A stretch of DNA of 64,000 nucleotides from Sedimentisphaerales bacterium (GCA_963708075.1 OY970194.1:6880001-6944000); one strand, 5' to 3'; shown: positions 6,085-30,331, counted from the stretch's first letter. Numbers and translations are program-made. Notes: generated from the letters alone by a model not told the origin.

Positions 6085-6148
6085 CGCTTCCCATAATAGC
6101 CGCACGCCCCATGACAAGCAACGCCAAACCGCTCCGATCCGTCCGCAG

Positions 6149-6520: not shown

Positions 6521-6581
6521 AAGATGTCCCCGAAATTCCCCCAAATCACAAATCTCAAATCATAGATCATAGATCCATAGA

Positions 6582-7322
6582 TCAAACCGCCTTTTGCTTC
6601 GCCCGTTCCCGCAGCCACCGGGCGTGGACCTGCCGTCGCCTCTTGACCGGCCACTCCTCGGGAAAGTTCGGCCGGGCCGACTCCCCGAATACCTGGGCCG
6701 CCTTGTAGTCATACGCCCGCGCCGCCTCCACCTCGCTGTCGAACCGCCCAAGACTGTAGTGCTCCTTGCGACAGTCCAGGCCTGCCCGCCATCGACCGGT
6801 CGCCTTGCACCGAGCGACGCCCTTGTAGATGGAACTGCCGCCGGCCCGCTTTCTCGTATTGTGCTGGTTCACCTGATGCGTGGTGTTCCGCAGATTGGCC
6901 CGGGTATTGTCGTACTTGTTGCCGTTGCCGTGATCCACGATCTTGCCCTTCGGCGGCTTCATGATCTCGCGATGCATCAGGACAACCCTGCGTTTGCCGT
7001 TGCGTTTCTCATGCCGTGCCGCGTACCCGCCTTTTGTTCCCCAACGCCATTGATTGAGCCACTCGAAGTCCGCAGCGTCCACATACGCATACAACCCGTC
7101 GCCCAGCGGGATCGTCTTGACCCCCTCTCCCTCCGGCACAGGCGGCCGCACCCGATAATTCCGACACACTGCCCCAACGGGACACGCCTTCATCAGCCCC
7201 GGCGACTCCGGCTGGTTCCCGCACGTCGGCCCAGCCGCCCACCCCGTCCCCAGACTCCGCATCCACAACGCCCGATCCAGATGAGCATAAACACACCTGT
7301 GACAACTCGCCCGCGTCGCCAT
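6582..7322 (-). CDS. HNH endonuclease (HNH_3) + AP2 DNA-binding domain protein with Cys-rich N-terminus
   Basis: MHREIM...VDHGNGNKYDNTRANLR (HNH); S.YKGV..., LGRFDSEVEAARAYD..A...FGE.ARPNF (AP2). Confidence 0.9.
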   Translation of the reverse strand: MATRASCHRCVYAHLDRALWMRSLGTGWAAGPTCGNQPESPGLMKACPVGAVCRNYRVRPPVPEGEGVKTIPLGDGLYAYVDAADFEWLNQWRWGTKGGYAARHEKRNGKRRVVLMHREIMKPPKGKIVDHGNGNKYDNTRANLRNTTHQVNQHNTRKRAGGSSIYKGVARCKATGRWRAGLDCRKEHYSLGRFDSEVEAARAYDYKAAQVFGESARPNFPEEWPVKRRRQVHARWLRERAKQKAV

Positions 7323-7881
7323 GATTCGCCCCTCTCAATCACGTTTGATGTTTGATGTTTGATGTTTGATTTCTCAAGTAGGACGGCCTCTCTTACTTCT
7401 CACATCAACCATCATAAATCAACCATGATCATAGCCGCACTATGATCCTTTGTCCATACAGTTGTTCAAAAATCACCAAATTTTTCTGTGCACACGGTAA
7501 CCCCTTTGTGGCACACGGATTAGGAGTCGCTTTGTCCGCAGATTGCACCGATTTTTGCAGATTTCCAGGACGAATCACAAATCCTAATTCGTAAATCGTA
7601 AATCCGATAGGCCACGGAGAGCGCCGAGCCCACGGAGCGGAATATAAGGATGTAGGGTGGGTTCTTAACCCACGCGGATTCTGATCCTCTCACGCAGAGA
7701 CGCCGAGACGCAGAGGGTGGAAGGAGAAGGGAGAAACGCAGGAAGGGAAGCAGGGAAGGAGGTAAGAACTGCCCCATCGGCACTCAGGGATCGGGGATCA
7801 GGGGCCAGAAATGATTGCTCTGCTGAACCCCGGCCCCTGACCCCCGACACCTGCTGGCCATTCCGCCCACAGTAAGGGGTT

Positions 7882-8656
7882 TCAGCCCACTGGCAATGTG
7901 CCATACGCCCCTTTCTTGAACACATAAATCGCCCACCCCAACGTTTCTCGTCCCCACCTCAGATACGCTGTCTTGCTTTCCCGCACTCGTTTCAGCACGG
8001 TTCTCCACATCAGGATCATCCCGATGGCCACTCGCCCAGCTTTCTGCTGCATACCATTGCAACCCTTCATACTTGTCCCAGTCATCTTGGCTGCTTACGA
8101 GTGTGTAGACGGCCTCCAACCCGTGTTCTTGCCCAGCCTTAACATTCTCATCATGTGTTCCGCAGTTGTTCCTTGTCTGGCCGATGGCCTCTAAATACTC
8201 TCTTTCCGGTTCATGCCGCCAGTAGGGTTCACCCACGACGATCCAACTTTCTGGCGCTGCCATCTTGTATAACGCGTTCAACGTCCCTCCATGCCCGCCA
8301 TAAATCCAACTCGCACCGATGCAGGCCACCAGATCAAAACTCTCTAAGGTCTCTGGGACATACTTAGCCCCATCCATCTCTAAGAAGTGGAGTTGAGCAT
8401 CTGGAACGCGTGTTTGGTGCTTTTTGCGGACATCTGCAATGCAGTAAGGAGAGAAATCAACCCCTGTCCCCGTCATTTGTCGGTGCCGCTCTGCGAGCCT
8501 GATGAGAAATTCGCCCTTGCCAGTGGCGATTTCAAGCACGCATGCACCAGGTTTCAGACGCAGAAGCGTGATGAGCTCTTCAAATTTCTCAGAACTCATC
8601 GGGTTGCAGAACACGTGCTCCCGATGCGTGATGTCAAAGAACTTCCACATGTCCAT
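7882..8656 (-). CDS. Class I SAM-dependent methyltransferase, frameshifted near 8000
   Basis: VLEIATGKGE motif I, ACIGASWIYGG, IVVGEPYW; C-terminus (YLRWGRETLGWAIYVF) in another frame; SD GAGGAGG. Confidence 0.8.
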
Positions 8657-8834
8657 GAGTTTACCTCCTCTGGCGCATTAACATGCTAAGTGCAACACGG
8701 CTCAGCGATCACGAGCCATCCGGTCGCCTATTCACTTGCGTAGATCTGAAGAAACTAGGGACGGACCCTATTTTAGTCGGGGCAATCCGGTTCTTCCAGT
8801 CCGAGTTCTCAAAATCCGACAGCCATCGCACATT

Positions 8835-8944
8835 TCGGCCTCACCACATCTGTCCGGCCCGTGGGGGCCGGCGACCAACTTGTCGCAGCTTCATCAGAGG
8901 TGCAGAACTGACGGGATTATAGCCCTTGCAGGCATGGTCTGCAA
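8835..8944 (-). ncRNA. Promoter + conserved ~85-nt element, copy 1 (putative ncRNA/leader)
   Basis: TTGCAG-17-TATAAT then cacctctgatgaagctgcgacaagttggt...cccccacgggccggacagatgtggtgagg. Confidence 0.55.
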
Positions 8945-9027
8945 GAGGGATGTGACAAGTTTGAAGTGTGATGTTTGAAGTGGGAAGTCGGAGGCTCCGC
9001 CACGCCCAGGATTCCATCATTCCAGAG

Positions 9028-9150
9028 GGAATTCGGGGGACACATTACTTATTTGGCAGGAATTAAGTATTGTGTCCCCAGATCCCCGGCAGTGGACATC
9101 TGGGGACACTATACTCAACTCGGGGCGGAGATAGGTGTCCCCGGAATTCC
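9028..9150. repeat. Two tandem GGGGACAC...GTGTCCCC inverted-repeat units
   Basis: ggggacacattactt...aagtattgtgtcccc and ggggacactatac...ataggtgtcccc. Confidence 0.8.
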
Positions 9151-9162
9151 GCTGTCATGGCT

Positions 9163-11244
9163 TCAGCTACCATAACCCATCAGTTCGTCATTAGACAACT
9201 CCTTGTTTGGCACAAGTCGGTAATGCTTTTCCTCTTTGATCTTTATTTCTCCCTCGGATAACTCGAATTCGAACATCGCAACTAACTCTCCGTCTACAAA
9301 CTGCGTGGCAATCGGACGGCACTTTATCGCTGGAAATTTCGATTTGCAGATGGCAAGGTCTTGTTCTATCTGGATGATGCCAATCATATCTTTGGCGCCC
9401 TTGGCCTGGATAGGAAAAACAAACTGTTCGCCACTCTTGCTGATACCGATGTACAGTTCGTCGATTTCACCTCCACCCATACCCGGTACAGAGGTCCTTA
9501 GATGGCTCTGGAGCGAATAGCAGGTCACCCCTGTAAAGATGTCTATGAGTCGATTATACCGTACTATCGCCAAAAGGGCCTGCTCGTCGCTCAGTGCATA
9601 CCGCCGGATCACCTCTGGCGTAGCATCAGGTACCTTGATCGTGGACAATCTGGGATTTGGCCTAATCTGGTGCATTGAGGCTTTTGCAAATACGTACTTT
9701 GACCGCCCCACAGATCGTATCACCCACTCCTGGTCTGCATCAAGAAGCTTCCTCATGCTTTCGGGTAACGCACCTCTATACCGGAAGGTGTAGGGAATAT
9801 CGCCAAGATTGAGCGGGACTTCTATGCCCAACTCGCCAGCAGCGTCAACAAACTCCTGCCGCTCGAAGTATACCTCGGTGGCACCCTCCTTGTAGTGCTT
9901 GAAGAACACATGCTCGATGATCTGGGCATAACGAGTGGGGTTTCTCCCTTCCTTTGTCTTCTTTTTCGCCATCTTCTTCTCCCCTGGCCATTCCAGAACC
10001 AAGACTTCTTCACGTAGTTGTTCACCTGTCGCTGTCGATAAACGTGTTCTAAACAAGTCAAGCGAAAGGACTTCGTACCCGATCTCGTGGGCGATATCGG
10101 CCAGAAGCTCTCCCGTGCGGATTAGGACCTGTAGGAATGATGCTTGGTCACCAACAACGTAGGCCAACTTCGCACCAGGTTTCAGGACCCGTTTCATCTG
10201 CTCGAAATGTCGTTTCATTCCGCCAAAGTACAGTTTTGTGACTCGATGGTATAGGCGTTCAAAGCCAGAGTCCTTGTTAAGATCTATGCGCCGCCTCTCG
10301 ATTTCATCTGCAATCGCGTTTATTCTGCGATTGCCTGAGACGGCCAGGTCATCGTCATCACTACGATAGACATTTCGCGTATTGGAACGGAGCAGGCTCT
10401 CTTTAAGCAAACGCAAATCCTGCTTGGATCTTACGAAACCGAGGAGGACACTCTCAAGGCGTGTCGTACGCGTATAGTCCTTCTCATTCGGGTATGGAGG
10501 CGATGTAATCAGTCCATCGACAGAGCCTGGCGGAAGGTCACTAAGCATTTGCCTTGCATCTCCGAGCACACATTTCGCGTCAACGGAGGTAAGAGCCGCA
10601 AACTCTCTGAGGTCGCCAGCCATTTCATTGATCTTGTTCAACCAACTCTCAAGAACAGGCGCGTCAGTCTTCTTGTTGCTCCCTACGCCCACCTCAGGTC
10701 CAAACTTCAGATTGCTCGCAACAAACACTGAAACGAACGCAAATGCTAGCAACTCAATGTTGCGCAGCGATGGATCGCGCCCTCTCTCTATCGCTTCACG
10801 AAGGATGAGACACTTATGGAGTGGGAGCGGACTGATTGAATCCGTAAGAAGCAGATTCTCCTCTTCGCCGGGCAAGGTCCGTCGTTCACCGTTCCATTCC
10901 TCCATTGCGCGGTGCGCGCGTTGAACGACTGCGCCCGCATGCTGAACAAGTCGCTCAGGCTCGACAGACCAGTTTGTTTTCACCTTTGATGCGAAGCATG
11001 CCATAGGATGAGCTTCAACGCCGTAAGCTCTGATCCCATTCTTCTTCGCCTCTACAAGAGTTGTTCCCGTTCCGCAGAACGGGTCCAGAACCAGATGATC
11101 CCGGGTCAGTCCAAAGCGGGAGAAATAGGTCCGCACAAGATGCGGCGGGTAGGACAAGACAAAACGGTACCAATCGTGGAACGCGCGATCCGCGTCTTTC
11201 AACTTGTTGTGACGCAAGTCTTTAGGTGCTAACAATTCTTCCAT
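9163..11244 (-). CDS. Amino-DNA methyltransferase (SPPY, N4C-type) fused in-frame to putative restriction endonuclease
   Basis: VLDPFCGTGTT and ITSPPY motifs; C-terminal EIDELY...PIQAK PD-(D/E)xK-like motif; internal SD+ATG at 9972. Confidence 0.8.
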   Translation of the reverse strand: MEELLAPKDLRHNKLKDADRAFHDWYRFVLSYPPHLVRTYFSRFGLTRDHLVLDPFCGTGTTLVEAKKNGIRAYGVEAHPMACFASKVKTNWSVEPERLVQHAGAVVQRAHRAMEEWNGERRTLPGEEENLLLTDSISPLPLHKCLILREAIERGRDPSLRNIELLAFAFVSVFVASNLKFGPEVGVGSNKKTDAPVLESWLNKINEMAGDLREFAALTSVDAKCVLGDARQMLSDLPPGSVDGLITSPPYPNEKDYTRTTRLESVLLGFVRSKQDLRLLKESLLRSNTRNVYRSDDDDLAVSGNRRINAIADEIERRRIDLNKDSGFERLYHRVTKLYFGGMKRHFEQMKRVLKPGAKLAYVVGDQASFLQVLIRTGELLADIAHEIGYEVLSLDLFRTRLSTATGEQLREEVLVLEWPGEKKMAKKKTKEGRNPTRYAQIIEHVFFKHYKEGATEVYFERQEFVDAAGELGIEVPLNLGDIPYTFRYRGALPESMRKLLDADQEWVIRSVGRSKYVFAKASMHQIRPNPRLSTIKVPDATPEVIRRYALSDEQALLAIVRYNRLIDIFTGVTCYSLQSHLRTSVPGMGGGEIDELYIGISKSGEQFVFPIQAKGAKDMIGIIQIEQDLAICKSKFPAIKCRPIATQFVDGELVAMFEFELSEGEIKIKEEKHYRLVPNKELSNDELMGYGS

Positions 11245-11874
11245 GAATCCCAGAGCCGTCTGCATTACAGGGTACACCTATCTGTCCCGAATACAACGAG
11301 ACCGGGTCATTGTAGGGCCGTTGCCCCGCTTCCGCAAGCCGCTTACGGGGAATTCCACGCTGACCTCGATTAGTCTCAAGGTGAGGGTCTGGAGCCTTGG
11401 GGCAGGGGAATCAGTGTCCGTGGCTTGGTCTTTTTCCGGTTGTTGGCATGTCAGGCGAGGGTATAATGGCTCATGGCTGGGAGAAATCAGCCGGGGGGGA
11501 AACGGGGTCAGGTCCTGCAATGTGGAATTATTAGGAAGATGTGGTGTGCGGTGCACGCCCTACAGGATTGTGTCTCTCGCGAAGGCGCGAAGGGCAGAGA
11601 GGGTTTCGGGTTGTTAGTTGTTGGTTGCCCATAGGGGAGGTGGGGATATAATGGCTTTGGCTGGGGGCATCAGCAGGCAGAAATCTGCGGCGCCGGGCGA
11701 ATGTGAGGGCGCCTACTGGTGAAGGGCCGAATAATGAGCACGTGTCAGGAGTTGCGGGCCGGTGCAGACGAGGGGACTGGATAGAGGAATTGCATGGACG
11801 AGCTAGGGAAGGTGGAACAACCGGAGGGGCGGGACACGCCGAGCCAAGCTGAGCCGGTGGGCGGCCAGATCCTA

Positions 11875-12049
11875 GGAGGACCGGGGGTCGCACCTGCGCA
11901 CCTACACATTTCACTTTCCGCAAATCTCCGCGTCCTCTTCGGTTCTCACCACAACTGTCCGGCCCGTGGGGGCTGGCTACCAACTTCTCGCAGCTTCATC
12001 AGAGGTGCACAACTGACGGTATTATGGCAGACGCGGGCGGAGGCCGCAA
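11875..12049 (-). ncRNA. Promoter + conserved element, copy 2, followed by gtgaaatgtgtaggtgc-gacccc site
   Basis: TTGCGG-17-CATAAT; same core as copy 1. Confidence 0.55.
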
Positions 12050-12756
12050 GCCGAAAGTGATAGGCGATACGTGATAAGTGGCAAGTGTGAAGCGGGAAGC
12101 CGGGGGGGGCGGGAGGCCCGGATTTCGGATTGCGGAATGACCAGCAGGTGTCGGGGGTCAGGGGCCGGGGTTCAGCAGGGCAATCATTTCTGACCCCTGA
12201 TCCCTAATCAGTGTTCATCCGGGTTCATCAGCGGTTTTCATTTTCTCCGTGGCCTCCGTGCCTCCGTGGTGAGAGACTCTGGATTCCCGCCTCCGCGAGA
12301 ATGACATGGAATCCGCGTGGATTGAGAATCCACCCTACACACTACTCTCTGCGTCCCTGCGTCTCCGCGTGAGTTGATCTTTTTTCGCGTAGTTCGCGTC
12401 CCCCGATCGGGTCGAGGGCAAGCCTTCGCGGTCGAGAATACGCGTGGGTTAAGAACCCACCCTACTACTTCGTGGTCTTCGGGCCCTTCGTGGTGGAGAG
12501 CCTGGATTCCTGCCCTCGCGGGAATGGTATGGAATCCGCGTGGGTTGAGAACCCACCCTACATACTGAAAACAGCCGGAATGGTCGTGCGGGGACGCATG
12601 ACCCCCGATCAGGTCGGGGGCAGGCTCTACGAAGAGGCTTATGGATGGCCACCGTATTCCGGCCGTGACTCCCGGTGCGCGGAGGGCGATTGTGCGAAAC
12701 GAAACCAGTCGGCGGGCTTGGCTCAGGACACAACGGGTCAGGATTGGCGTTCCGGA

Positions 12757-14304
12757 TCAGGCCTGAGCGGGTTTCAGCGTCTCCTCGTGGGTGCGGGGGG
12801 AGTGTACGACGTTGATGCCGTACATCTGGCAGAAGGCCTCAACGTCGCGCCGGTGATTGCCGTAGAAGACGACCTGGTGAAATCCCAGGACGTCCCGGCA
12901 ATCCTCAATGCCGTCCATCTGGATCTCGACACTCGTTCGGCAGCCGCCGGCCGGAGGCGTGTTCACGTTGCCGACCACGGTGCCTGTGTCGAGATAGAGT
13001 GCGTCGGGCGTGAAGAATTGCACGAGCGTCACCGGCCGGCCGACCGGCCAGAGGACCTGCGGCGAGACGCCCAGGCTCGATTCGGAGTGGCTGCGGAGAA
13101 TGTACGGGGCGTGCTCTTTTTGGCGATCCAGGCCGTAGATCCGCGTGCCGCTGACGCAGTGCGCCGCGATCAGCACGTTCTTGACGGTCTCGGGCACCGG
13201 ATCATTCATGAATCCGGGCTTGTCGAACAGATAGCTCGTCAGCATGAGCGAGACCGCCGGGGCAACCGCCGCTTCGCAGCCGTAGGTCACCCCCGCATCC
13301 TGGAAGATCGACGCGCCCATGCACGGCGGGGTCGGCACTTTCTTCTGCGTGACCATGCCCAGACAGTCGGTTGTCAGTGCGTTGCAGCTTTCGTTCTTGA
13401 GCAGTTGCTTGGCGGCAATGTACGACCGTGCGGCGTTGAGGCCGTCCTGTTTCGTCGGCTCCACCACCTTCTCGGCCTCGCGGAATCGCTGATGCGCGAC
13501 CCACTTGGCTTCCTCGCTGACCGGCGTCTGGCTGAACATCTCCTCGAAGGTCGCCCGGGGGACATGCTGGAGGCTCACGAGACCGAATTTGTCTTCCTGA
13601 CGCTCGTTGCCGCTTAGAACGAGCATTCTGGTTGCTTCGAGCTGCCGTTTGGCGCGGATCATGCGCAGGGCCTGCTCGATGGCCGGCGTTTCCAGTGATG
13701 AGATGACGTGGACGCCTCTTTGGAAGGCGAGGCTGTTCACGTGTCCCGTGAAGGCGGTGCCGACGGGAGCAAAGACGATCGTGGGCACGCCGGCCTTGGC
13801 AATCTCGCTCGCCATGCCCCAGTACGCGAAATGCTGGAGGGTGACCAGGACGGCGTCGGGTTTCTCGGCCTGCACTTTCTGGACGAACGAGGCGACGGCC
13901 GCATTCTCTTCGAGGGGCTGCGCCTCTTGGATGATTTCGACGCCCACTCGCTGGGCGGCATCGGCGGTTGCCTTGGCGTACCTTGCCCGCTCGCCCTCGA
14001 CATCGTACGACGTACCCGGCCAGCCGAGCCAATAAGGCGGCTTCTGGCGTGCGACCACGCTCATCACCCGGACCTTCGGTCGCGGCCGGAACGAGGCCAG
14101 ACTGATCTCCTCGTTCGATTTGGGCGCGGTGTGGAGTGAACGGGCGAAAGATGTTTCGCCCCTACCGGCACACCCTGTCGCCAGCGCCGCTGTGCAAGCC
14201 GCGGCTGTGCCCAGGAACGCTCGCCGGGACATCGCGCAGCAACTGCATGGATGATTGTGGATAATGGGTCTTTCGCTTGATGTGGGCCGATTCCTTGGCG
14301 ACAT
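12757..14304 (-). CDS. Tat-exported protein, L-fucose/L-arabinose isomerase-like fold
   Basis: SRRAFL Tat motif; DCLG..P.PC, YGCEA, GFMNDP, AHC, CRT, GFHQV pattern. Confidence 0.55.
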   Translation of the reverse strand: MSPRNRPTSSERPIIHNHPCSCCAMSRRAFLGTAAACTAALATGCAGRGETSFARSLHTAPKSNEEISLASFRPRPKVRVMSVVARQKPPYWLGWPGTSYDVEGERARYAKATADAAQRVGVEIIQEAQPLEENAAVASFVQKVQAEKPDAVLVTLQHFAYWGMASEIAKAGVPTIVFAPVGTAFTGHVNSLAFQRGVHVISSLETPAIEQALRMIRAKRQLEATRMLVLSGNERQEDKFGLVSLQHVPRATFEEMFSQTPVSEEAKWVAHQRFREAEKVVEPTKQDGLNAARSYIAAKQLLKNESCNALTTDCLGMVTQKKVPTPPCMGASIFQDAGVTYGCEAAVAPAVSLMLTSYLFDKPGFMNDPVPETVKNVLIAAHCVSGTRIYGLDRQKEHAPYILRSHSESSLGVSPQVLWPVGRPVTLVQFFTPDALYLDTGTVVGNVNTPPAGGCRTSVEIQMDGIEDCRDVLGFHQVVFYGNHRRDVEAFCQMYGINVVHSPRTHEETLKPAQA

Positions 14305-14615
14305 AGTTTTTCTCCTTAATGGTCTCCGGGACAGGACAGACTCTACACGGGGGTCGTGGCGCTTTCAAGCCCAAAAGCCCGGTGAGCTGTAGGGGTTTCT
14401 GTGCCTGCCGTGGCGGGTGCCGGCGTCACAATCACGGGCTCGCCCGGAACCATCCCGTGAGCCAATGTCGAATGTACAGACATTGGGCGGAGAAAAGGCG
14501 GGGTGTGCTTTGAATATACACTGTCCGAAGGGCGAGACGATCAGGCCTTTAGATTGCTCGGACGGTGTGCCCGATTCGGGGGCGGAATCGCAGATATGGA
14601 GGTTCTCTGCGTATC

Positions 14616-14813
14616 TCAGGTGCGCGGCTCGCCTTCCTGGACCGCATCCTTCAACTGGTCCCTGAGGTCCGGCGTGTCATCATAACCGTGAACCTTCACC
14701 ATGTGCTCCGCCGCGGTCTCGATGACTTCCTCGTCGGTGTCGGCCGAAATGGCTATGGTGCATTTCTGGGATGGATCCGGGTGCTCTCTACAATCGATGT
14801 ACTTTCTGGTCAT
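14616..14813 (-). CDS. DUF1059 family small protein
   Basis: YIDCRE.P....CTIAISADT..E....AAEH...VHG; SD AGGAGG. Confidence 0.85.
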   Translation of the reverse strand: MTRKYIDCREHPDPSQKCTIAISADTDEEVIETAAEHMVKVHGYDDTPDLRDQLKDAVQEGEPRT

Positions 14814-14927
14814 AGTAACCTCCTTTTTCGCACAGTACTATCACTTCCGGCGGGACCGTTGGAACTGGGGAAAACCTGATATCACATGCTCCAAACCCCG
14901 AGAGGGGGATGCTCCGGCATCGCTCGC

Positions 14928-15404
14928 TCAGGCGGGGGGCCGGGCGATGGGGCCGATGGTGGCGCCGGTGGCACGGATGTAGTCCTGCGGAGCGAGCAGG
15001 ATTTGCGTGCCGCGGATGCCGGCGGAAACGGAAATGATGTCGTAGAGTTGGGCGGTTTCATCGAGGTAAACAGGGTAGTCCTTTTTGCCCGCCAGGGCCG
15101 TCACGCCGCCGCGGATGTAGCCGGTCAGCGCCTGCAACTGGCTGACGGGCGTCAACTCGACCCGGCGATTGCCGGAGAGCCGGGCCAGGGCCTTCAGGTC
15201 CACCTCCGCATCGCCCGGCACGACCGCCATGAGGATGCCGTGCACATCGCCCCTGGCCACCAGGGTCTTGAAGACCTGGTCCGGCGGCAGACCGACCTGG
15301 CCGGCGACTTTGATTGCGCTGAGATCGTCCGGGTCCACCTCGTACTCCCGCAGCTCGTAGTGGATGCCCAGCTTGTCAAGTTGTCGTGTCGCGTTGGTCT
15401 TCAT
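14928..15404 (-). CDS. ybaK: Cys-tRNA(Pro) deacylase
   Basis: MKTNA.R.LD, QVFKTLV, TGYIRGG, ISVSAG.RG motifs. Confidence 0.9.
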   Translation of the reverse strand: MKTNATRQLDKLGIHYELREYEVDPDDLSAIKVAGQVGLPPDQVFKTLVARGDVHGILMAVVPGDAEVDLKALARLSGNRRVELTPVSQLQALTGYIRGGVTALAGKKDYPVYLDETAQLYDIISVSAGIRGTQILLAPQDYIRATGATIGPIARPPA

Positions 15405-15414
15405 CTCGAAGGAA

Positions 15415-15489
15415 TCGGGGTGACTGGACTTGAACCAGCGACCTTGTGGTCCCAAACCACACGCTCTAGCCAAACTGAGCTACACCCCG
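15415..15489 (-). tRNA. tRNA-Pro(UGG), CCA not encoded
   Basis: CGGGGTG acceptor, D arm AGCTCAGTTTGGCTAGAGC, anticodon loop TT-TGG-GA, T loop GTTCAAGT. Confidence 0.97.
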
Positions 15490-15599
15490 TGAATCTTACC
15501 CCAGAGATTATACCCGCCCCCCGGCCCCGACGCAACACGCCAATTGCCGCCGCCCCCCAAAATTCCGCCGCCCGCACGTGGCAAGGATGCGGCCGCCAT

Positions 15600-15765
15600 T
15601 CGGTGGCGGATTCGGGGCTCCGCGTAGGACGAGCGTCCTCGCTCGTCCTCTTTCGGCTGTGGCCTTGTACAGGATCCAGTCCGTTGCAAGGGCCCGGACT
15701 GGTCGTGCGGGGACGCACGGCCTACGAAGAGGCTCGCCGACTGCCACCGTATTCCGACCACACCC
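15600..15765. repeat. REPIN-like doublet of GTAG-hairpins (also ~35750-35910 inverted, 45897-46056, partial 12580-12665)
   Basis: GTAG-GACGAGCG-TCCT-CGCTCGTC facing GGTCGTGCG-GGGA-CGCACG(A/G)C-CTAC with conserved spacer. Confidence 0.85.
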
Positions 15766-16195
15766 CGTGGCAAGGGCGTCCGGCCCTTGTCTGCAACGGC
15801 AAGAGGGGCGCCGCCGGAGCTTGCCAAGCATAGAGGCCACTCCGCCGCCGGGAAGAGCTCTGCGCGGCCTCCGACCGCAACCAAATCAACTCGCGCAGAG
15901 ACGCCGAGGCGCAGAGATAATGCAACCGCCGATAAACGCGGATGCCGACCCTGTCATTCCTGCGGAAGCAGGAATCCATCTTCTGGGAACTGACAACCCA
16001 CAACTGACAACTGACCATTCTGCCACAGAGGACACGGAGCCCGCAGAGGAAGACTCCAAGAACCGGCAACTGACAACTGTCCTCAATCCGCAATCCCCAG
16101 TCCCTTACTGCCTCCGACTTCTCACTTCGAACATCAAACTTCACACTTGACACTTCCTCCCAATCATAAATCATAAATCATAAATCCCAACGCTC

Positions 16196-16408
16196 TTGCC
16201 TTCTCCGCCTGCCTTCGCCATAATACCGGTAGTTTTGCACCTCTGAGAAAGCTGCGACAAGTTGGTTGGCGGTCCCCATGGGCCGGACTGATGTGGTGAG
16301 GCCGATATGAGTGGGACGGCCATAACGGCGTCAAGGCCGAGGGATAAATGAGACTGAGGAAGGCGGAAATAGGTGACTGTCCCTAGATTCCACCTCTAGA
16401 TTCCACCT
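16196..16408 (+). ncRNA. Promoter + conserved element, copy 3, followed by ataggtgactgtccctag site
   Basis: TTGCCT-17-CATAAT; diverged core (ctgagaaagctgcgacaag...ccccatgggccggac). Confidence 0.5.
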
Positions 16409-16448
16409 CCGTTCTTCCTCATGCTTCGACCAGCACCCGGAATTTGCC

Positions 16449-17822
16449 TCAGCCCTCGGCGACTGCCAGCTTCGCGTCGGGAATCGCTGAAGCGTCGATG
16501 TCCCCATTCCACAGGTACCTGCGCGTTTCGAGGACCACGACGCCCGACAGCGCGAACAGAGAAATAACGTTCGGAATGACCATCAGGGCATTGGCGATGT
16601 CGGCGAACGACCATACCGCTCGCAGCGTCGACAGCGAGCCGACCATCACGGCCGCCACCCAGAGCAATCGATAGGGTTTTACGACGCGCGAACCCAACAG
16701 GTATTCCGCTGCCTTCTCGCCATAGTACGACCACCCGAGGATCGTTGAAAAGACGAAGGTGAGGAGGCTCACGCTCAAGACGATGGGCCCGACAAACGAC
16801 ATGCCTTCGAACGCCACCTTTGTCAGCGCGGCCCCGTTATGCCCCTGTATCCACTGGCCGGAATTGACGATCACCAGGCCCGTCAGGGCGCAGACAACGA
16901 CCGTATCCCAGAACGTGCCGGTCGAGGACACGAGGGCCTGCCTCACCGGATTCTTCGTCTGGGCGGCGGCGGCGACGATCGGCGCGCTGCCGAGCCCCGA
17001 CTCGTTGCTGAAGAGCCCCCGGGCGATCCCGTACCGCGCCGCCTCCCTGACCGTTGTCCCGAGAAATCCTCCGACGGCCGCCTGTCCCGTGAAGGCCCCT
17101 GAGACGATCAGGCGGATGGTCTCGGGAATCGTTTCGTAGCGCATAGCCAGTAGAATGATCGAACCGATGACGAAGAAGATGGCCATGAATGGCACGAGCC
17201 ATTCGCACCAGGCGGCGATGGATTTGATGCCGCCGAGAATGACCAGGGCGGTGAGCGCCGTGATAACGATCCCTGTGATCCACTGCGGCACGCCGAAGGT
17301 CTCGCGGACCATGGCGGCCACCGAGTTCGCCTGCACCATGTTCCCGATGCCGAAGGCGGCGATCGTCGTGAGCCCCGCGAAGACGAGTCCGAGCCAGCGG
17401 CAGTGCATCCCGCGTTCGAGCACGTACATCGGGCCGCCCGCCATGGCTCCCGATTTCGTCGTGATGCGGTACTTGACCGACAGCACCGCTTCCGCGTACT
17501 TGGTCGCGATCCCGAAGACGCCCGTAAGCCAGAGCCAGAGGACCGCGCCCGGCCCGCCCGATGCTACGGCCGTGGCGACGCCGACGATATTGCCGGTGCC
17601 GATCGTCGCCGCCAGCGCCGTCGTCAGGGCGCCGAACTGACTGATGTCGCCCTGGCCCTCCTGCGAACGCTTCACGGACAGCCGGATCGCTTTGCCCACA
17701 TACCTCTGAATGAAACGCAGCCGAATCGTGAGGAAGATATGAGTCCCGAACAGGAGGATGAGCATGGGGGGACCCCACACGAGATCGCTTAACCACGCGA
17801 GTAACTTATCAACGGCCTCCAT
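16449..17822 (-). CDS. Alanine/glycine:cation symporter (AGCS family)
   Basis: ALAATIGTGNIVGVA, GGPGA, RGLFSNESGLGSAP, FSTILGWSYYGE. Confidence 0.95.
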   Translation of the reverse strand: MEAVDKLLAWLSDLVWGPPMLILLFGTHIFLTIRLRFIQRYVGKAIRLSVKRSQEGQGDISQFGALTTALAATIGTGNIVGVATAVASGGPGAVLWLWLTGVFGIATKYAEAVLSVKYRITTKSGAMAGGPMYVLERGMHCRWLGLVFAGLTTIAAFGIGNMVQANSVAAMVRETFGVPQWITGIVITALTALVILGGIKSIAAWCEWLVPFMAIFFVIGSIILLAMRYETIPETIRLIVSGAFTGQAAVGGFLGTTVREAARYGIARGLFSNESGLGSAPIVAAAAQTKNPVRQALVSSTGTFWDTVVVCALTGLVIVNSGQWIQGHNGAALTKVAFEGMSFVGPIVLSVSLLTFVFSTILGWSYYGEKAAEYLLGSRVVKPYRLLWVAAVMVGSLSTLRAVWSFADIANALMVIPNVISLFALSGVVVLETRRYLWNGDIDASAIPDAKLAVAEG

Positions 17823-18150
17823 GCCTTGGCTCCTTTGCCGAGATTCCAAATGACAGAACGAATGAGAAGATTCTATCAAAGGCAAGCCATCGGTCAATGA
17901 TCTGCATCAATGGGCTAAGGTGCCGCATCATGCGGCGTTCCGTCATCGCCCGGCCCCGCCGTGCCCCCAACCGGCAACTGCCAACGGATTATCAACCGCG
18001 GATAAACGCAGGTGAACGCCGATTTTCAACCTGTAATTGCCTTTTCATTCCGCATTCATCATCGCCTCCGACTTCCCACTTCACACTTCAAACCACTTAT
18101 CACCTATCACTTCTCACTTGCGGGCCCCGCCTGACAGGCACACACGCTGC

Positions 18151-19593
18151 TCAAGTATACGCAGCGCCGATCCGATCGCCGGTTCTTCTCACCCAGTCCT
18201 TCAGAAGTCGCCTGTGCCTGTCCAGGACGTTCTCCATCCCCGGGGCTTCGGCAAGATTCTTCATCTCACCCGGGTCGTCCTTCAGATCCACAAGCCACTC
18301 ACGCCGTTCACCGGAATCATAGATGCTGTACTTGAACCGATCCGTCCGCAGCATCCTGCCGTTCTGGCTCTCCGAGACGACGAAATCACGCCATCCCTCC
18401 ACGGGCCTGTTTTGCGTCAGCGGTCGCAGACTCCTGCCGGGGAGTCCCGCAGGCGTCTCTATCCCCGCGAAGTCACACAGGGTGGGAAGCAGGTCGAGAC
18501 CGTTGGAAACCAGGTGCAGGTCGTCAACCACTCCCCTGGGGATCCCGCCGCCGAGACTCATTACGAATGGAACCCGCACGGCTTCTTCATAGAGCACCGA
18601 CTTGTGCTCCAGCCTGTGTGATGCGTCCATATCGCCGTGATCGCTGGTGAAGACGATGAGGGTATTGTCTTCGAGGCCCGCCTCCCGGACGGCGTCGAGG
18701 AGTATCCCGATCTGCTCGTCCACCATCTCGGTCAACCGGCAGTAGGCCCAGCGGTGTAATCGCCACTGGTCTTCGCTCCAGTTCGCACGGACATGCGCTC
18801 GAAACGCGCTCGCATCGACGTACTTGTGCGTTATGCATCCCGGCTCATCCTCCGGGATCCCGTAGTTTGACGGCAGCGGCGGACAGTTGTTCCGCACGAA
18901 ATCGGCCAGGTCTCCAGCTCCCCTCACCCGATCCAGCACGGCCTCACAGGTCTTGGAACCCACAGTGCCGGCTGGGGGCTGTCCATTGGCACGCGAGTGG
19001 GCGTTGATCGCCATGTAACAGATATCGTGCGGATTCATGAACGACGCGAAGAGCAGGAACGGGCTCGCATGGGGACTCTTGATGAATTTCGCACAGGCAT
19101 CCGCCAATCCCTGGCGCGAATCGTTGGTGAGATTCCGATATCCGATATTCTGCAGGTTCTCCATCCTGGCCGGCAGGTGCACCTTGCCGCCATACACGGT
19201 CTCGTAGCCCGCCTTCCGGAAGAGGGAGCCAAGCGATTGCTGCACCATGATCTCGGTCACGGCGGCCCGTTCTATGTCGCCGTTATGGCTCATTCCGATG
19301 GCACTGGGCATGAGCCCCGTCTGCAGGCTGAACCGGCTTGGCACGCAGACCGGGTTAGAGGCATAGGTCTTTTCGAATCGGATGCCTGAGGCGGCGAGCC
19401 TGTCCATGGCAGGGGTTTTAAGCCACTTGTTGCCCGTGCAGCTCATCATGCCGGCGTGTTGCTGGTCGGTCATGATGAACAGGATGTTGGGCCGGCGTTG
19501 TCCCGGTTGGCCGTGCGCGGTCATCGGGGTCCGCGCGAACGTCAGCCCACCGGCCGCCGTCATCGCCGCGGCAATAAACTCTCGTCTCCTCAT
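18151..19593 (-). CDS. Tat-exported sulfatase
   Basis: RRREF Tat; PNILFIMTDQ; CVPSR; FTSDHGD. Confidence 0.92.
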   Translation of the reverse strand: MRRREFIAAAMTAAGGLTFARTPMTAHGQPGQRRPNILFIMTDQQHAGMMSCTGNKWLKTPAMDRLAASGIRFEKTYASNPVCVPSRFSLQTGLMPSAIGMSHNGDIERAAVTEIMVQQSLGSLFRKAGYETVYGGKVHLPARMENLQNIGYRNLTNDSRQGLADACAKFIKSPHASPFLLFASFMNPHDICYMAINAHSRANGQPPAGTVGSKTCEAVLDRVRGAGDLADFVRNNCPPLPSNYGIPEDEPGCITHKYVDASAFRAHVRANWSEDQWRLHRWAYCRLTEMVDEQIGILLDAVREAGLEDNTLIVFTSDHGDMDASHRLEHKSVLYEEAVRVPFVMSLGGGIPRGVVDDLHLVSNGLDLLPTLCDFAGIETPAGLPGRSLRPLTQNRPVEGWRDFVVSESQNGRMLRTDRFKYSIYDSGERREWLVDLKDDPGEMKNLAEAPGMENVLDRHRRLLKDWVRRTGDRIGAAYT

Positions 19594-20028
19594 AAGTCGT
19601 GATCCTCCTGGCCTGCGACAATCAAAACCACCTGCTCCAACGGTTCTCTGTTCAGTAGTGATCCTACCAGCGATTTGGCTCACAATCAAGGCCGGCCATT
19701 CTCCCAATGCCCGGAACCTCACGCCGCCCCCTGATCCCTCTGTCCACCGTCAACTGACAACTGAGAACTGACAACAACTGATCATCTCGCGCAGAGACGC
19801 CGAGGCGCAGAGGATAGTACGTAGGGTGGATTCTCAACCCACGCGGATTCTGATTGTTCGCCACGGAGAGCACCGAGAACACGGAGAACAGAGCATCAAA
19901 GGCGATGGGGGAGGAACGTAGGAAGGGAAGAAGGTAAGGACTGCCCAATCCGCATTCCGCAATCACACGGCCCCGCCGTGCCTTCTCATTCCGCATTCCG
20001 CAATCCGCACTCCGCAATCGGAAGCCTC

Positions 20029-20192
20029 TTGCCGGCCCCGCCCGCGTCTGCCATAATACCGGCAGTTTCACACCTCTGATGAAGCTGCGAGAAGTTGGTC
20101 GGTGGCCCCCACGGGCCGGACAGATGTGGTGAGGCCAAAGAGGACGCGGAGATTTGCGGAAAGTGAAATGTGTAGGTGCGACCCCCGGTCCT
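20029..20192 (+). ncRNA. Promoter + conserved element, copy 4, with site
   Basis: TTGCCG-17-CATAAT; core; gtgaaatgtgtaggtgcgacccc. Confidence 0.55.
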
Positions 20193-20407
20193 CCCCGCTA
20201 GCGCTCTGAGTGCCGAGGGCTTTGCCGAGGCCTTTCGACGGTTCGCATCTGATGAGGACGCTTCGCGTGTCCCTCCGGGGACTTTGGCGTCTGTCTTGTG
20301 GAGCGTCGAACGGCTGGGCCGGAGAACCATCACTTTCGACGGGTCACAGTAGCAGGGTGGGCTGTGTCCATCGCTCTTGTCTGAGTACCGGCTACCGCCT
20401 TTTTCCC

Positions 20408-20573
20408 TTGCGGGCCCCGCCTGCTCGTGCCATAATACCGCCAGTTCTGCACCTCTGATGAAGCTGCGAGAAGTTGGTTGCGGGCCCCCACGGGCCGGAC
20501 AGATGTAGTGAGGCCGAAGATGACGTGGGGATTTGCGGAAAGTGAAATGTGTAGGTGCGACCCCCGGTCCTCC
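20408..20573 (+). ncRNA. Promoter + conserved element, copy 5, with site directly before cargo genes
   Basis: TTGCGG-17-CATAAT; core; gtgaaatgtgtaggtgcgacccc; ATG at 20591. Confidence 0.55.
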
Positions 20574-20590: not shown

Positions 20591-21514
20591 ATGAGCGACA
20601 CAGAACCGAACCAGAACGAGACCACCCTGGGCACGAAGCCTAAGCCGTTCGTCTTTGTGCTGATGCCGTTTGCGAAGGAGTTTGATGATACCTACCAGCT
20701 TGGCATTAAGGCAGCTTGTGAGAAGGCAGGAGCATATGCACAGAGGCTTGACGAGCAGCTATTTAACGAGAGCATGCTGCAACGCATTTACAACCAGATC
20801 GCCAAAGCTGATGTCATTGTGGCAGATATGACTGGCAGGAATCCCAACGTCTTCTACGAAGTAGGGTATGCTCATGCTCTCGGTAAGGTCGTGATCCTGC
20901 TGACGCAGAAGAACGAGGATATACCTTTTGATCTGAAACATTACCGGCACATCGTCTATGAGAATGTGGTTAGTTTACAACCACAACTTGAGACGGCCGT
21001 TCAATGGGGAGTGAAGCAGGCCAGCGGGGAGGCACTGCCTAAACCCCCGATTGCGGTCTATCATGAAGATAGGCCTTTGATTGACAAACCAACTATTGTG
21101 TTCACGCTATACCATCCTAAGACACAGTTGGACCGGTCACGCATTCGATTCTCTTTGACGTACGGCAATATTGATGAAGTAAATACGGTGCGGTGTAGAA
21201 TGGCCATATGGACCTCCAAGCTGTTCCGAACCGCTCAATGGTACGACAACCTGGGTCCGCCGCCTGTGGATGGAGGACCAACAATATATCCAATACTACA
21301 TCCTACTCAACGGAAGATTTTCACTTGTCCAGTGGTCATGTCCTTGCTACCGGAAGAATGGCGATCAGATGTGTTAGTGCTTGGAATGCGAACCGATGAC
21401 CTGAAACATGGTGAGCAGTATTTCACCGAAGATATGGTACTCCGCGTCTCCACACAATCCGGCAGCTATAGCTATCCCTTCACAGCAAGGATCGAGCAGG
21501 ATAAGAAACAATGA
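20591..21514 (+). CDS. Nucleoside 2-deoxyribosyltransferase/TIR-like N-terminal domain + unknown C-terminal domain
   Basis: FVLMPF, ADVIVADMTGRNPNVFYEVGYAHALGK, IPFDL. Confidence 0.75.
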   Translation: MSDTEPNQNETTLGTKPKPFVFVLMPFAKEFDDTYQLGIKAACEKAGAYAQRLDEQLFNESMLQRIYNQIAKADVIVADMTGRNPNVFYEVGYAHALGKVVILLTQKNEDIPFDLKHYRHIVYENVVSLQPQLETAVQWGVKQASGEALPKPPIAVYHEDRPLIDKPTIVFTLYHPKTQLDRSRIRFSLTYGNIDEVNTVRCRMAIWTSKLFRTAQWYDNLGPPPVDGGPTIYPILHPTQRKIFTCPVVMSLLPEEWRSDVLVLGMRTDDLKHGEQYFTEDMVLRVSTQSGSYSYPFTARIEQDKKQ

Positions 21515-22410
21515 TTGCCACAAAGACCGTACTGGTGTTGGGAGCAGGAGCGAGTGCTCCGTATGGATTCCCTACAGGTGGGGCATTGGTCGAACTAATC
21601 GCGAATGATTTTGCATCACCACGATTTGCGAAAGCCGAAAAAGTCATGCCGGAAGGATACCGAATCTTGACAGGCAGACTAAGACAGGCACAACACAATT
21701 CCATTGATGAGTTCCTTGAAAACCATCCATCATTTGCGGACATTGGGCGACAAGCCATAGCACTTCACTTGCTCCCGGCGGAATCCCATTCAGGAGCCAC
21801 CCTGATGGATTTGACCAAGAAGGATCACTGGTACAGATACCTGAAAGGGCAGTTGGGCCCTCTTGGTACATTCGGAAAGAATCAACTCAGGATCATCTCC
21901 TTCAATTACGACAGATCAGTGGAGCACTACCTGTACGAGACTTCGCGGACAAGCGATGAGCGGATCAATGATCAACAGTGTGTGGAGATATTGAAGCAAC
22001 TCCCTGTACTTCATGTCTATGGCAACTTGGGGCCATTACCTTGGCAGTCGCGTATCGGGACCATACCCTATGGTGGTAGTACCCCAGAACCATGTGCAGA
22101 GGAGATTCGACAAGCAGCCATGAACATCAAGATTCTACATCAGGGAACTGATGACGAAGTGCAACAGAATTTTCGGATTGCTCAAGAATGGCTGAAATGG
22201 GCTGAGAGGATCGTCGTTCTGGGCTTCGGATTTCACCACGCCAATGTTGAACGACTCGCACTCACTGAGACGTTTCAAGGCAAAAGAGAAGTTGTAGGTA
22301 CATGTAAAGACTTGGCTCTGACGAACAGGGCGGCTGCTTTACATGTTACTTTCCCCCGACCTGCTGCCGATTGCTACACACTACTGCACGATCATGTTGT
22401 TCTGTTATAG
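21511..22410 (+). CDS. SIR2-like (SIR2_2/AbiH-like) protein
   Basis: LVLGAGAS.PYGFP, IISFNYD, LHVYG, IVVLGFGF; ATGA-coupled to upstream gene. Confidence 0.75.
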   Translation: MIATKTVLVLGAGASAPYGFPTGGALVELIANDFASPRFAKAEKVMPEGYRILTGRLRQAQHNSIDEFLENHPSFADIGRQAIALHLLPAESHSGATLMDLTKKDHWYRYLKGQLGPLGTFGKNQLRIISFNYDRSVEHYLYETSRTSDERINDQQCVEILKQLPVLHVYGNLGPLPWQSRIGTIPYGGSTPEPCAEEIRQAAMNIKILHQGTDDEVQQNFRIAQEWLKWAERIVVLGFGFHHANVERLALTETFQGKREVVGTCKDLALTNRAAALHVTFPRPAADCYTLLHDHVVLL

Positions 22411-22746
22411 GTGCGAGGGGACAATGGGGGGAATAGAGGGTCACACCTACGGGGGAATAGAGGGTCACACCTACACATTTCACATTCCCGTCATTTCGGA
22501 GGGTAGCCAAATGTATAGAAGGGACCTTCGCGGGGTCACATTGCGAATTAGGAATGATTCCGGAATCGGCTCGCGAACACCCTGGAGTTCGCTGTCCGTC
22601 GTCACTCGGTTTCAGGTTTCTGTGCGAACGGCGCGACTTGCCGGTACAACCGGGAAGGGACGGCAAGTCACGATGGGACAAGAGGCAAGTAGTTGCACAA
22701 TCCGAGTCATTTCTCTATAATGGGCAGGGTGCACGAGGATCAGTCA

Positions 22747-26495: not shown

Positions 26496-27443
26496 CTATT
26501 GCAGCAGGGCCTTGAGCTGGCTTTGGAGTTGGCGGTCGGTCTGCAAACGCTGCTCGGCCCGGCGGCAGGCGTGCGAAACCGCTGACTCGCCTACACCGAA
26601 ATGCTCGGCAATCTCGCCCAGGCGAAATCGACCCTGCCGCCACAGCAGGTATATCAGCACCTCCCGCATGGGTCGCTCCCGGTGCCGGATCGGCCGAAGT
26701 AGCGACGCATACTCCTGCGAATCGATCCTCAGCCTGCGGCGGTATTCCGCCAGATGCTCCTGGATCGTCCCATGCGATTGCAGGGCTCGCAACTGGGGCT
26801 TGTCTGGCTCTCGCAGGCCTTGCACACGCTGACGCAGCTCCTCCACCACGGCCTCGCTGCCCAGCACCAGGCCATAGTGCAGGCTCGAAAACAGCTCATC
26901 CGCCCGTTCATCGTATCGCCGCACCGCCTGGCGAAAGCCCCTGGCGTCGAGATCCAATTGCTCGTACACCAGCCGTGCATCAAACCACGCCGGCCCGCCC
27001 CGGCCATACGCCAACGCCCGGTAGCTGCTCCAGCGGTAATCCTCCAGTCGTTCCGCGAGCCTGGCCCGCAGGGGATTGCGATGGATATACAGCAGCAATC
27101 GCTGGAGATACTCGGTCTCTTGAATGAGAAAGCTCTTGAATCTCCCCTGGAACAGGTGCCCGCTTCGCCGATGTCGGCGATTATGCCATGAGCCGTACGC
27201 CACTTGCAGCCACTGCATCGCCGCCGAGAGGTTCGCTTCTTGGGTCTTGACCAGAAGATGATAGTGGTTGCCCATGAGCACATAGGCGTAGATGTCGAGA
27301 GAGAACCGTTCCGAGCACCGGCCCAGTCGGTCAAGAAAGTCCTCGTAGTCGTGCTCATCGCGAAAGATCGCTCGCCGCTCATTGCCGCGATTGAGCACGT
27401 GATAGAATGTATCTTCCTGATCGATGCGTAACGGCCGTGCCAT
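26496..27443 (-). CDS. RAYT-like Y1 (HUH) transposase with C-terminal HTH
   Basis: MARPLR, YHVLNRGNER, YVLMGNHYHL (HUH), GHLFQGRF, YIHRNP, YRWSSY; C-terminal EIAEHFG..SAVSHA. Confidence 0.9.
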   Translation of the reverse strand: MARPLRIDQEDTFYHVLNRGNERRAIFRDEHDYEDFLDRLGRCSERFSLDIYAYVLMGNHYHLLVKTQEANLSAAMQWLQVAYGSWHNRRHRRSGHLFQGRFKSFLIQETEYLQRLLLYIHRNPLRARLAERLEDYRWSSYRALAYGRGGPAWFDARLVYEQLDLDARGFRQAVRRYDERADELFSSLHYGLVLGSEAVVEELRQRVQGLREPDKPQLRALQSHGTIQEHLAEYRRRLRIDSQEYASLLRPIRHRERPMREVLIYLLWRQGRFRLGEIAEHFGVGESAVSHACRRAEQRLQTDRQLQSQLKALLQ

Positions 27444-27544
27444 GAACAGCAGAGTACAACGTCACGAACGGTGCCGTCAAGCAAATAATTCCTTATTCAA
27501 GACGTGACCCCGTTTCCGCTTTTCATTGTCCGCTCCCCCGTCTA

Positions 27545-28108: not shown

Positions 28109-28114
28109 CTGCTA

Positions 28115-28892: not shown

Positions 28893-28923
28893 TCATAGAG
28901 GGTCACACCTACACATTTCACAT

Positions 28924-29934
28924 TCATCGCAGTGCTTTAAGGCTCTGTTCGATCTGCGACCAGGCTTCCAGGAGTTTCTTGTCCCGACGAAGCGTCTGCT
29001 CGGCGCGGTCGCGGGCCATCGTCAGGCCACTCAGTGAGATGTCGAAGCGTTTCGCCAACGCGGTCAAGCTCTCTCCCGCTCGGCTGTAGCGGCACACGCC
29101 GTAGATCAGTAGTTGCCTCGCACGGCGGTCCGAGCCGCGCAGCGTCAGCAGGCTCTCCGGCCGGACTCCGCAGTGGCGCCCCACACAGCCGGCCACCGCG
29201 TCAAAAGGAATCGACTGCCGGGCCCGCTCGAACGCCGGCTGCTCTCGCCGATCGGCGTTTCGCGTCAGCACGTAGGTCCGCCGAATGTGGTCAAGGAAGG
29301 TCTCCGTCCCCAGGATCGTCTGGCCCTCCAGTCGGGCCAGCGGGTTGTCCAACTCCCGCAGCAGGCCTTCCTCGACGTACTGGCCATATCGCCGCATCTG
29401 AACGCGTCGGCTCGCCCCCCAGTCCGACAGAAGCGGCCCGGGATCAAACCACTTCGGGCCCGGCGACAAGCCGATGCAGGCTGCATAGCTCGACCAGCCA
29501 AACGCACGCAGCGCCCGCCGTCTGGCCGACACGGACGCCGGCCGCAGTGCCTTGGTCCGGACCGGATTGAGATGGATGTAGCGTGAGACCTCGCCGCCGT
29601 AGGCGTCATTCTCGACCAGATGGGCCGTGAAGCGGCCCTGGAAGACGTGCCCGCGGCTGCGCCGACGGCGGTTGAGGCTGATCGTGAAGCTCGTCAGAAG
29701 GCTCTGCATGAAGCGGCTGAGATTCGCCTGCTCGGTCCGCAGGTACAGATGGAAGTGATTCGGCATGCAGCAGTAACACAACAGCCCCACCTCGAACTGC
29801 CGGCTGAACTGGCCCAGCCGCTCCAGGAACAGCTCATAGTCTCTCGCCTCCGTGAACACGGCCTGCCGCCCATTGCCCCGATTCATCACATGATAGCAGG
29901 CACCCGCATACTCGATCCGCAACGGACGAGCCAT
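28924..29934 (-). CDS. RAYT-like Y1 (HUH) transposase with C-terminal HTH, second paralog
   Basis: MARPLRIEY.GA.YHVMNRGN, MPNHFHL, GHVFQGRF, YIHLNP, WSSY. Confidence 0.9.
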   Translation of the reverse strand: MARPLRIEYAGACYHVMNRGNGRQAVFTEARDYELFLERLGQFSRQFEVGLLCYCCMPNHFHLYLRTEQANLSRFMQSLLTSFTISLNRRRRSRGHVFQGRFTAHLVENDAYGGEVSRYIHLNPVRTKALRPASVSARRRALRAFGWSSYAACIGLSPGPKWFDPGPLLSDWGASRRVQMRRYGQYVEEGLLRELDNPLARLEGQTILGTETFLDHIRRTYVLTRNADRREQPAFERARQSIPFDAVAGCVGRHCGVRPESLLTLRGSDRRARQLLIYGVCRYSRAGESLTALAKRFDISLSGLTMARDRAEQTLRRDKKLLEAWSQIEQSLKALR

Positions 29935-30109
29935 ACACAGTCTCCTTTCAGACAAGCAGATCTGCAACGTCCGCCAGAATACACCGGACCCGTGGGCCTC
30001 GTCAAGAGCAAATATGAAATGTGTAGGTGTGACCCCGTATTCTCTGGAGGACTGGCCCTCCAGGGTCGGTCGGCGAGGGCAGGCGGCAAAGGCGGCAAAT
30101 CGCCCCGGT

Positions 30110-30255
30110 TTCCGCCGCTCATTGCCGCGATTGAGCACGTGATAGAACGTATCCTCCTGATCGATGCGTAAGGGTCGTGCCATGAGCACCAGAGTACAAC
30201 GTCACGAACGGTGCCGTCAAGCAAATAATTCCTTATTCAAGACGTGACCCCGTTT
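30110..30255 (-). pseudogene. Truncated duplicate of first RAYT 5' end with its promoter and site
   Basis: Near-identical to 27375-27515 (MARPLRIDQEDTFYHVLNRGNERR). Confidence 0.85.
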
Positions 30256-30331
30256 ACCCCCCCCCGAGTATTGTGTCCCCGGAACCCGGAGGTGGCTGTT
30301 CCCTGTATACACAAATGCTATATCGCGACTC

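Follow-up and report, generated by a model that had tools for sequence, protein, structure and literature searches.

A ~190-nt predicted expression head ending in a RAYT-type terminal inverted repeat precedes exchanged, often defence-like genes in Sedimentisphaerales

The window analysed here is a stretch of 64,000 nt from a Sedimentisphaerales bacterium (GCA_963708075.1 OY970194.1:6880001-6944000). It carries five copies of a promoter-like unit, called heads below and numbered by coordinate, together with the genes that follow them (passengers), terminal inverted repeats (TIRs), and two Y1 transposase genes. The features are as follows:

7784..8656, minus strand: passenger of head 1, a SAM-dependent methyltransferase (Pfam Methyltransf_25)
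8756..8950, minus strand: head 1 (family model, TIR comparison), with −35 box 8944-8939, 17-nt spacer, −10 box 8921-8916, SD-like motif 8845-8839, ATG 8833-8831, and a C-type TIR at 8756-8775 that faces the passenger and matches the ends of a 235-aa RAYT at G000:4612359 (G000 being the genome that holds the window)
9036..9143, no strand: two short inverted TIR pairs, 9036-9079 and 9102-9142 (sequence, site map)
9163..11277, minus strand: Type II methyltransferase-endonuclease fusion (PADLOC REase_II + MTase_II)
11884..12055, minus strand: head 2, with a partly duplicated A-type TIR at 11884-11914
16190..16384, plus strand: head 3, with a B-type TIR at 16365-16384
18118..18133, plus strand: −35-only remnant, preceded by 7-nt-periodic repeats and unscored by the family model
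20023..20186, plus strand: head 4, with an A-type TIR at 20164-20186
20400..20565, plus strand: head 5, with an A-type TIR at 20543-20565
20591..22410, plus strand: two-gene passenger of head 5, its first ATG ~25 nt after the TIR; a nucleoside-deoxyribosyltransferase/TIR-like protein (20591-21514, plus, 49% GC) and a SIR2-like protein (21511-22410, plus)
22438..22485, plus strand: A-type TIR, duplicated and in left-end orientation, that closes the passenger of head 5
26496..27512, minus strand: second Y1 transposase, 315 aa, with a DnaA-like C-terminal HTH and a D-type left TIR
28897..30037, minus strand: intact TIRtron, with inverted A-type TIRs on either side of a 336-aa Y1 transposase (28924-29934)

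The five copies had been reported in an earlier note; all stand at the positions and on the strands given there, and all keep TTG, 17 nt, and (C/T)ATAAT followed by a conserved block of ~85 nt. Searched unfiltered with the family model, the window yields no others: E runs from 8e-28 to 7e-24 for the five and is 0.6 at the following match. Homology continues for ~70 nt beyond the end given in the note, through an SD-like motif and an ATG to the TIR. The TIR-like site that the note placed after each of the five copies is indeed there, and so is the remnant at 18118-18133, which matches just the −35 box and spacer of copy 5.

The surroundings of the five heads differ. The fusion gene at 9163..11277 lies beyond ~600 non-coding nt downstream of head 2, which has no ATG at the usual position, and is closed by a left-end TIR; the TIR pairs at 9036-9079 and 9102-9142 each consist of a left end and a right end without a gene between them, and are candidates for attC-like separators. 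Head 3, whose TIR matches the ends of a RAYT at G000:4636885, is "empty": it has no passenger, and next to it is a convergent alanine symporter, 3' end first. A synteny comparison at this empty head yielded three symporter orthologues with nothing else in common. Head 4 has no adjacent passenger, and is followed after ~220 nt by head 5.

The element is not a five-copy one, as had been claimed, but a family of ~26–42 members per genome. The 7.5-Mb, single-contig genome G000 has 36 head matches by iterated nhmmer, 26 of them full-length, and 42 with a longer model; a sequence-only model finds heads in 21 of the 23 other genomes of the genus, with 1–29 matches each. With strict filters, one of 150 genomes of a phylum sample has a head, and BLAST found none in the 17 genomes searched outside the genus. 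An exact pattern scan of metagenomes gave 38 head loci, 33 of them distinct; the search pattern contained neither the −35 box nor the TIR. The alignment used below comprises 96 copies, 26 from G000 and 70 from relatives, the latter being the top scorers among 229 matches, together with one phylum match. Copies from kin are not independent.

The head is one unit of fixed length, ~190 nt, that joins a predicted promoter (−35 box, 17-nt spacer, −10 box), a leader, an SD-like GGTGAGG, an ATG, ~55 further nt, and an outward-facing TIR. Weighted conservation over the 96 copies is 0.87 for the −35 box, 0.62 for the spacer, and 0.90 for the −10 box, in agreement with the earlier description of fixed boxes around a variable spacer, which is 17 nt long in 82 copies. 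Out of sample, TTG occurs exactly 17 nt upstream of CATAAT in 29 of the 33 metagenome copies. A simple promoter scan reaches its threshold at only two of the five window copies. Pyrimidine-rich repeats with a 7-nt period precede the −35 box (autocorrelation at period 7, 0.39, vs 0.25 downstream), and the leader between the −10 box and the SD-like motif is purine-rich. The matching anti-SD is present at the 16S 3' end. An ATG occupies the head position in 57/96 copies; the short ORF that it opens is unconserved (5 to 382 codons, median 15). Of 55 scored copies, 39 have the outer TIR edge 67–71 nt beyond the end of the model. A TIR score of at least 8 is reached by 16/26 copies from G000 and 18/33 from metagenomes, with 16 of these 18 at 68–70 nt. 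Subfamilies of heads are distinguished by 2-nt indels. Separately, the region upstream of heads was seen to be crowded with other repeat types.

The first long ORF behind a head is co-oriented with it in 71 of 90 cases, and the upstream ORF in 36 of 71; ORF calls are crude, the longest ORF being taken, and 8 of 98 heads with a short flank or no ORF are left out of the count. PADLOC matches are seen for 23/69 co-oriented first downstream ORFs vs 7/69 upstream ones (Fisher p=0.0017), and include TIR, SIR2, GmrSD, FRG, and SLATT proteins, methylases, and kinases. The remaining passengers are secreted repeat proteins or belong to no family, many of them lacking a Pfam family. At some loci the head ATG itself opens the gene: an NYN gene at L280, L292, and L302, where the Pfam match starts at residue 8 counted from that ATG, and a prepilin-type gene at L101, where it starts at residue 1.

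An all-against-all comparison of head flanks reveals that a head stays at its chromosomal spot while the genes behind it are swapped. Heads adjacent to ilvC (KARI) in G000, G016, and G023 have unrelated passengers. The same upstream host gene is followed by different passengers at L003/L271 (85% identity upstream) and L088/L297 (86%); the pairs L280/L282, L274/L307, and L285/L299 likewise share the upstream gene and have unrelated passengers. Conversely, a passenger may be common to different loci, as in G000:3495751/L271 (84%), L088/L278 (86%), L117/L297 (73%), and L003/L014 (69%). Orthologous heads rank 1–5 of 133 in mutual identity in five of eight pairs, and 13, 23, and 34 in the other three. 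No empty allele was seen among the orthologous head groups compared. As for the junctions, in L003/L271 and L088/L297 identity extends across the head as far as the TIR; in L280/L282, L285/L299, and L046/L101 homology is already lost at or close to the ATG, before the TIR, and L298/L300 become identical inside the leader. Deletion or homologous recombination fits the ATG-end and leader-switch junctions, as does an assembly chimera.

Heads share their TIRs, which are of the GGGGWSAS type, with Y1/HUH transposases encoded in the same genome. Heads 2, 4, and 5 end in the A-type TIR of the 336-aa RAYT of the window (28924-29934), and heads that are 81–94% identical carry three different TIR families. 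Both window transposases match Pfam Y1_Tnp; the RAYT proteins match NCBIfam REP_Tyr_transpos below its cut-off. The 235-aa RAYT occurs in 18 of the 23 other genus genomes, and records of its close relatives are labelled Sedimentisphaerales or Planctomycetota. With a matrix built from RAYT ends only, at a score of at least 10, a right-end site is found behind 10/30 heads and a left-end site behind 1/30, vs 0.6% of random windows. Genome-wide, the scan with the site matrix does no better than in a shuffled genome (508 vs 650), and the site map was built from family seeds in place of the matrix. TIR singles, dimers, and clusters are all present; among 97 sites there are 13 right-to-left pairs at 300–6000 nt and 7 short left-right dimers. 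Within 6 kb downstream, the next site is a closing left-end TIR for 8 of 30 G000 heads, a same-orientation site for 5, and none for 17. A head differs from a TIRtron in having one TIR and no transposase ORF, intact TIRtrons lying elsewhere in the genome, and it lacks the second terminal inverted repeat of a MITE; nor do autonomous TIRtrons contain a head, the RAYT stop codon there abutting the TIR.

RAYTs physically belong to some head arrays, in few cases. RAYT genes lie directly, or one short cassette, downstream of heads at L159, L160, and L176, the order at L176 being head, TIR, one gene, TIR, RAYT, TIR, TIR, RAYT. The gene that is intact behind the head of L288 is interrupted ~100 nt into its length at the orthologous head of L274, by an entire A-type TIRtron that comes shortly after the head. 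Overall, heads occur at only 3/113 RAYT loci, and RAYTs at 2/106 head loci. No head TIR joint was found among the listed low-depth contigs of sequencing runs X1–X3.

Taken together, we consider it probable that the head is a sedentary, vertically inherited, cis-acting expression head for exchangeable cassettes; of the possibilities raised in the earlier note, a cassette-expression leader thus fits best, given the promoter spacing, the SD and ATG, the fixed distance to a RAYT TIR, and the co-oriented, exchangeable passengers. Here, a sigma70-type promoter would start a transcript ~150 nt before the single outward-facing TIRtron end; the SD and short ORF would load ribosomes, with translational coupling to the passenger, or at some loci supply its start codon; and promoterless genes would be gained, lost, or replaced at the TIR. 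The exchange would most likely be the work of the host's HUH tyrosine transposases of the RAYT type, with TIR half-sites as their substrate: they are the likely catalyst because the sites belong to HUH transposases and the integron integrase model TIGR02249 has six matches in G000, none over its cut-off. Somewhat further goes the proposal of a dedicated, RAYT-run cassette system, an integron analogue in which domesticated 3' stubs of RAYT genes would serve as promoter-plus-half-site platforms where defence and surface-protein genes are captured, swapped, and expressed; we put it forward tentatively, as possible rather than probable.

The main rival process is homologous recombination between the 190-nt heads, which can explain part of the turnover. 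In its full form, this explanation makes the head loci a passive mosaic hot spot, in which accessory regions collect 7-nt repeats, remains of TIRs, and a repeatedly used promoter repeat, and passengers change by homologous recombination between heads and by unrelated insertions, with no dedicated cassette enzyme. The crossover-like switch in the L298/L300 leader and the three pairs with junctions at the ATG point this way, as do the 17 heads with no further site within 6 kb, the predominance of transitions (981 vs 717), and the other repeats crowded upstream. However, promoter, SD, and TIR make up a single unit whose length is fixed, column conservation is overdispersed 12-fold against the binomial, the TIR marks the end of homology in L003/L271 and L088/L297, and the orientation and defence biases are one-sided; as a whole, the mosaic is unlikely.

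A mobile promoter, in which a non-autonomous transposon, or just its right end, would hop in front of resident genes and switch them on, would account for the transposase TIR at the end of the head and for the spread implied by 26–42 dispersed copies per genome. It is very improbable, as heads have no left TIR (in the 6 kb upstream, 22 of the 30 heads show no site, and two show a left-type one), orthologous loci keep what is upstream and change what is downstream, the reverse of what a hopping promoter would leave, and orthologous heads are mostly each other's close matches by the ranks given above.

The earlier note also offered a structured small RNA, possibly a RAYT cofactor, and described a 5-nt window (N5) that differs in every copy; in this reading the cofactor might be guide-like, with N5 as specificity loop. 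The conserved promoter and the block-like conservation over 85 nt would agree with an RNA, a 4-bp hairpin is possible in ~77% of cells, and the head-1 TIR falls on a terminator-like stem, although such stems number 13 vs 16.4 expected. However, a structured RNA is unsupported, because there is no Rfam match, consensus fold, or covariation. The Rfam scan of the window gave nine matches at E<=5, none overlapping a copy; RNAalifold on 38 copies gave a consensus of −1.87 kcal/mol with 0/4 pairs compensated; in the best of the three-helix models drawn by hand, 76% of cells pair, and 463 of 500 shuffles covary at least as strongly. The top mutual-information pairs over the 96 copies are mostly non-canonical, and folding z-scores are weak (mean −0.38; at or below −2 in 11/96). 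Nor is N5 hypervariable: the majority base is kept in ~40–70% per column over 96 copies, and neighbouring columns are equally or more variable. The hammerhead ribozyme core consists of an invariant CUGANGA and GAAA with three stems; in the head, the word resembling CTGATGA is variable (T 65%, A 71%), no GAAA stands at the needed place, and Rfam gives no match. A structured small RNA or RAYT cofactor is highly improbable. A leader-peptide attenuator or small-protein gene, for which the SD and ATG of most copies and a leader frame open in many rows might speak, is barely credible given the absence of synonymous bias in six leader frames (p 0.14–0.63) and in the mini-ORF (p 0.11), the range of ORF lengths, and the 2-nt indels between subfamilies.

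As to the origin of the expression head, it may be the decayed 3' ~190 nt of the 235-aa RAYT gene with its right TIR; we give this sequence-based suggestion even weight, at moderate confidence. The C-terminal 50 residues of the 235-aa RAYT family are collinear with one reading frame of the head, whose end is in register with the TIR. The idea arose after the consensus had been seen. By hmmsearch, at least 5 bits are reached by 7/96 copies vs 1.25% of shuffles, and by 11/33 metagenome copies vs 1.5%; the metagenome consensus scores 41.1 vs 29.2+-2.5, with 0/300 shuffles as high, while for the genome-set consensus 33/300 shuffles are as high and one of 13 unrelated control proteins reaches 38–39. 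Comparisons by nhmmer and by anchored DNA alignment were negative, as was hhalign (score 13.9 vs nulls of 11–13.5). By eye, no promoter boxes stand out at the matching place in intact RAYT genes; therefore, under a stub origin, the promoter would be an exaptation.

Among the closest known systems are TIRtrons, or TIRYT (PMC3733652; subclass 2.1 in PMC6006769; RAYT group 1 in PMC5581495). The head site fits the GGGGWSAS TIR consensus in the available text of these papers, its TIR type is identical to TIRs flanking the Y1 transposases of this genome, and singles, dimers, and clusters of TIRs, as described there, occur here likewise. In contrast, the available text describes TIRs and genes, with no promoter-leader unit, passengers, or exchange. 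In its layout the head resembles the Pc-attI1-ORF-11 region of class 1 integrons, with a fixed promoter, half a recombination site, and a short ORF with SD and ATG, followed by promoterless, co-oriented, defence-rich cargo, as far as the consulted sections of PMC8876359 go; in ORF-11, according to the same sections, what matters is the SD and start codon rather than the peptide sequence. A predicted promoter and a primary site with variable co-oriented cassettes are found here too, by analogy only. Unlike in integrons, head sites are HUH-transposase TIRs, and dozens of dispersed heads carry one or two genes each, vs one long array. The TnpA-REP/prochlorosin system of picocyanobacteria also has subclass 2.1 RAYTs, with C-terminal fragments among diversifying genes, and diversifying recombination was proposed there, the authors calling causality unresolved; in the part of that preprint covered here, the cargo is one gene family and no promoter head is described (bioRxiv 10.1101/2020.03.09.984088). 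A literature search, mostly of open-access main texts, found no published description of such a head. The parts are known (TIRtron TIRs, RAYTs, integron logic), and the combination in the head is new among the literature searched.

The function of TIR-flanked RAYT transposases is left open in PMC3733652, PMC6006769, and PMC5581495, so far as their available text goes. The head locus names a concrete substrate (head TIR and closing TIR), an enzyme, and a read-out, which makes RAYT function testable. Even if RAYTs exchange no cassettes, the 190-nt head serves as a pointer to defence-like genes. If they do, integron-like gene capture would have evolved a second time, by an independent route, and TIRYT/group 1 RAYTs would have a host function.

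Besides the heads (promoter–leader units of about 190 nt, each ending in one outward-facing TIR of a RAYT-type transposase) and the TIR sites, the window contains several further features:

6148-6514 and 35906-36272, 367-nt inverted repeat, 96% identity between copies
6544-7421, 8945-8995, 12050-12100, 15920-16190, 19720-20025 and 23320-23800, short repeat modules with a strand bias, arranged in chains
15415-15489 (-), tRNA gene, preceding head 3 by 700 nt
27545-31667, Rhs region with a core fragment and tip/immunity-like gene pairs
36564-37856, UPF0236-family transposase-like gene

Each copy of the 367-nt repeat contains two Acido-Lenti-1 matches, and the repeat is probably a small mobile element. 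The strand-biased modules consist of 7-nt periodic runs and REP-like hairpins; short-repeat runs also flank the HNH-AP2 gene (6582-7322).

In the Rhs region, TIRs and RAYT genes separate the core fragment and the tip/immunity-like gene pairs, and TIRs lie close to the Rhs junction motif. Tandem duplication of TIRs together with a few outer bases is frequent, as seen at 22438-22485 and 11884-11914 of the window and in loci L274 and L303 outside it; these duplications are possibly the footprint of a recombination reaction.

Directly upstream of the heads, six loci (L278, L305, L300, L093, L122, and L056) encode a protein family of about 300 aa, whose sole scanned member, that of L093, has no Pfam match. 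In L285, the head leads into a short stretch resembling, by eye, an integrase C-terminal fragment; a Pfam search with 53 residues of this stretch yielded no match. TIR sites are adjoined by a repeat of about 60 nt at 8676-8745 of the window and, elsewhere in the same genome (G000), at 5285928-5285974 and 4614399-4614458; this repeat appears to resemble half of an integron attC site. Integron cassettes may be the source of some passengers, i.e., the genes behind the heads.
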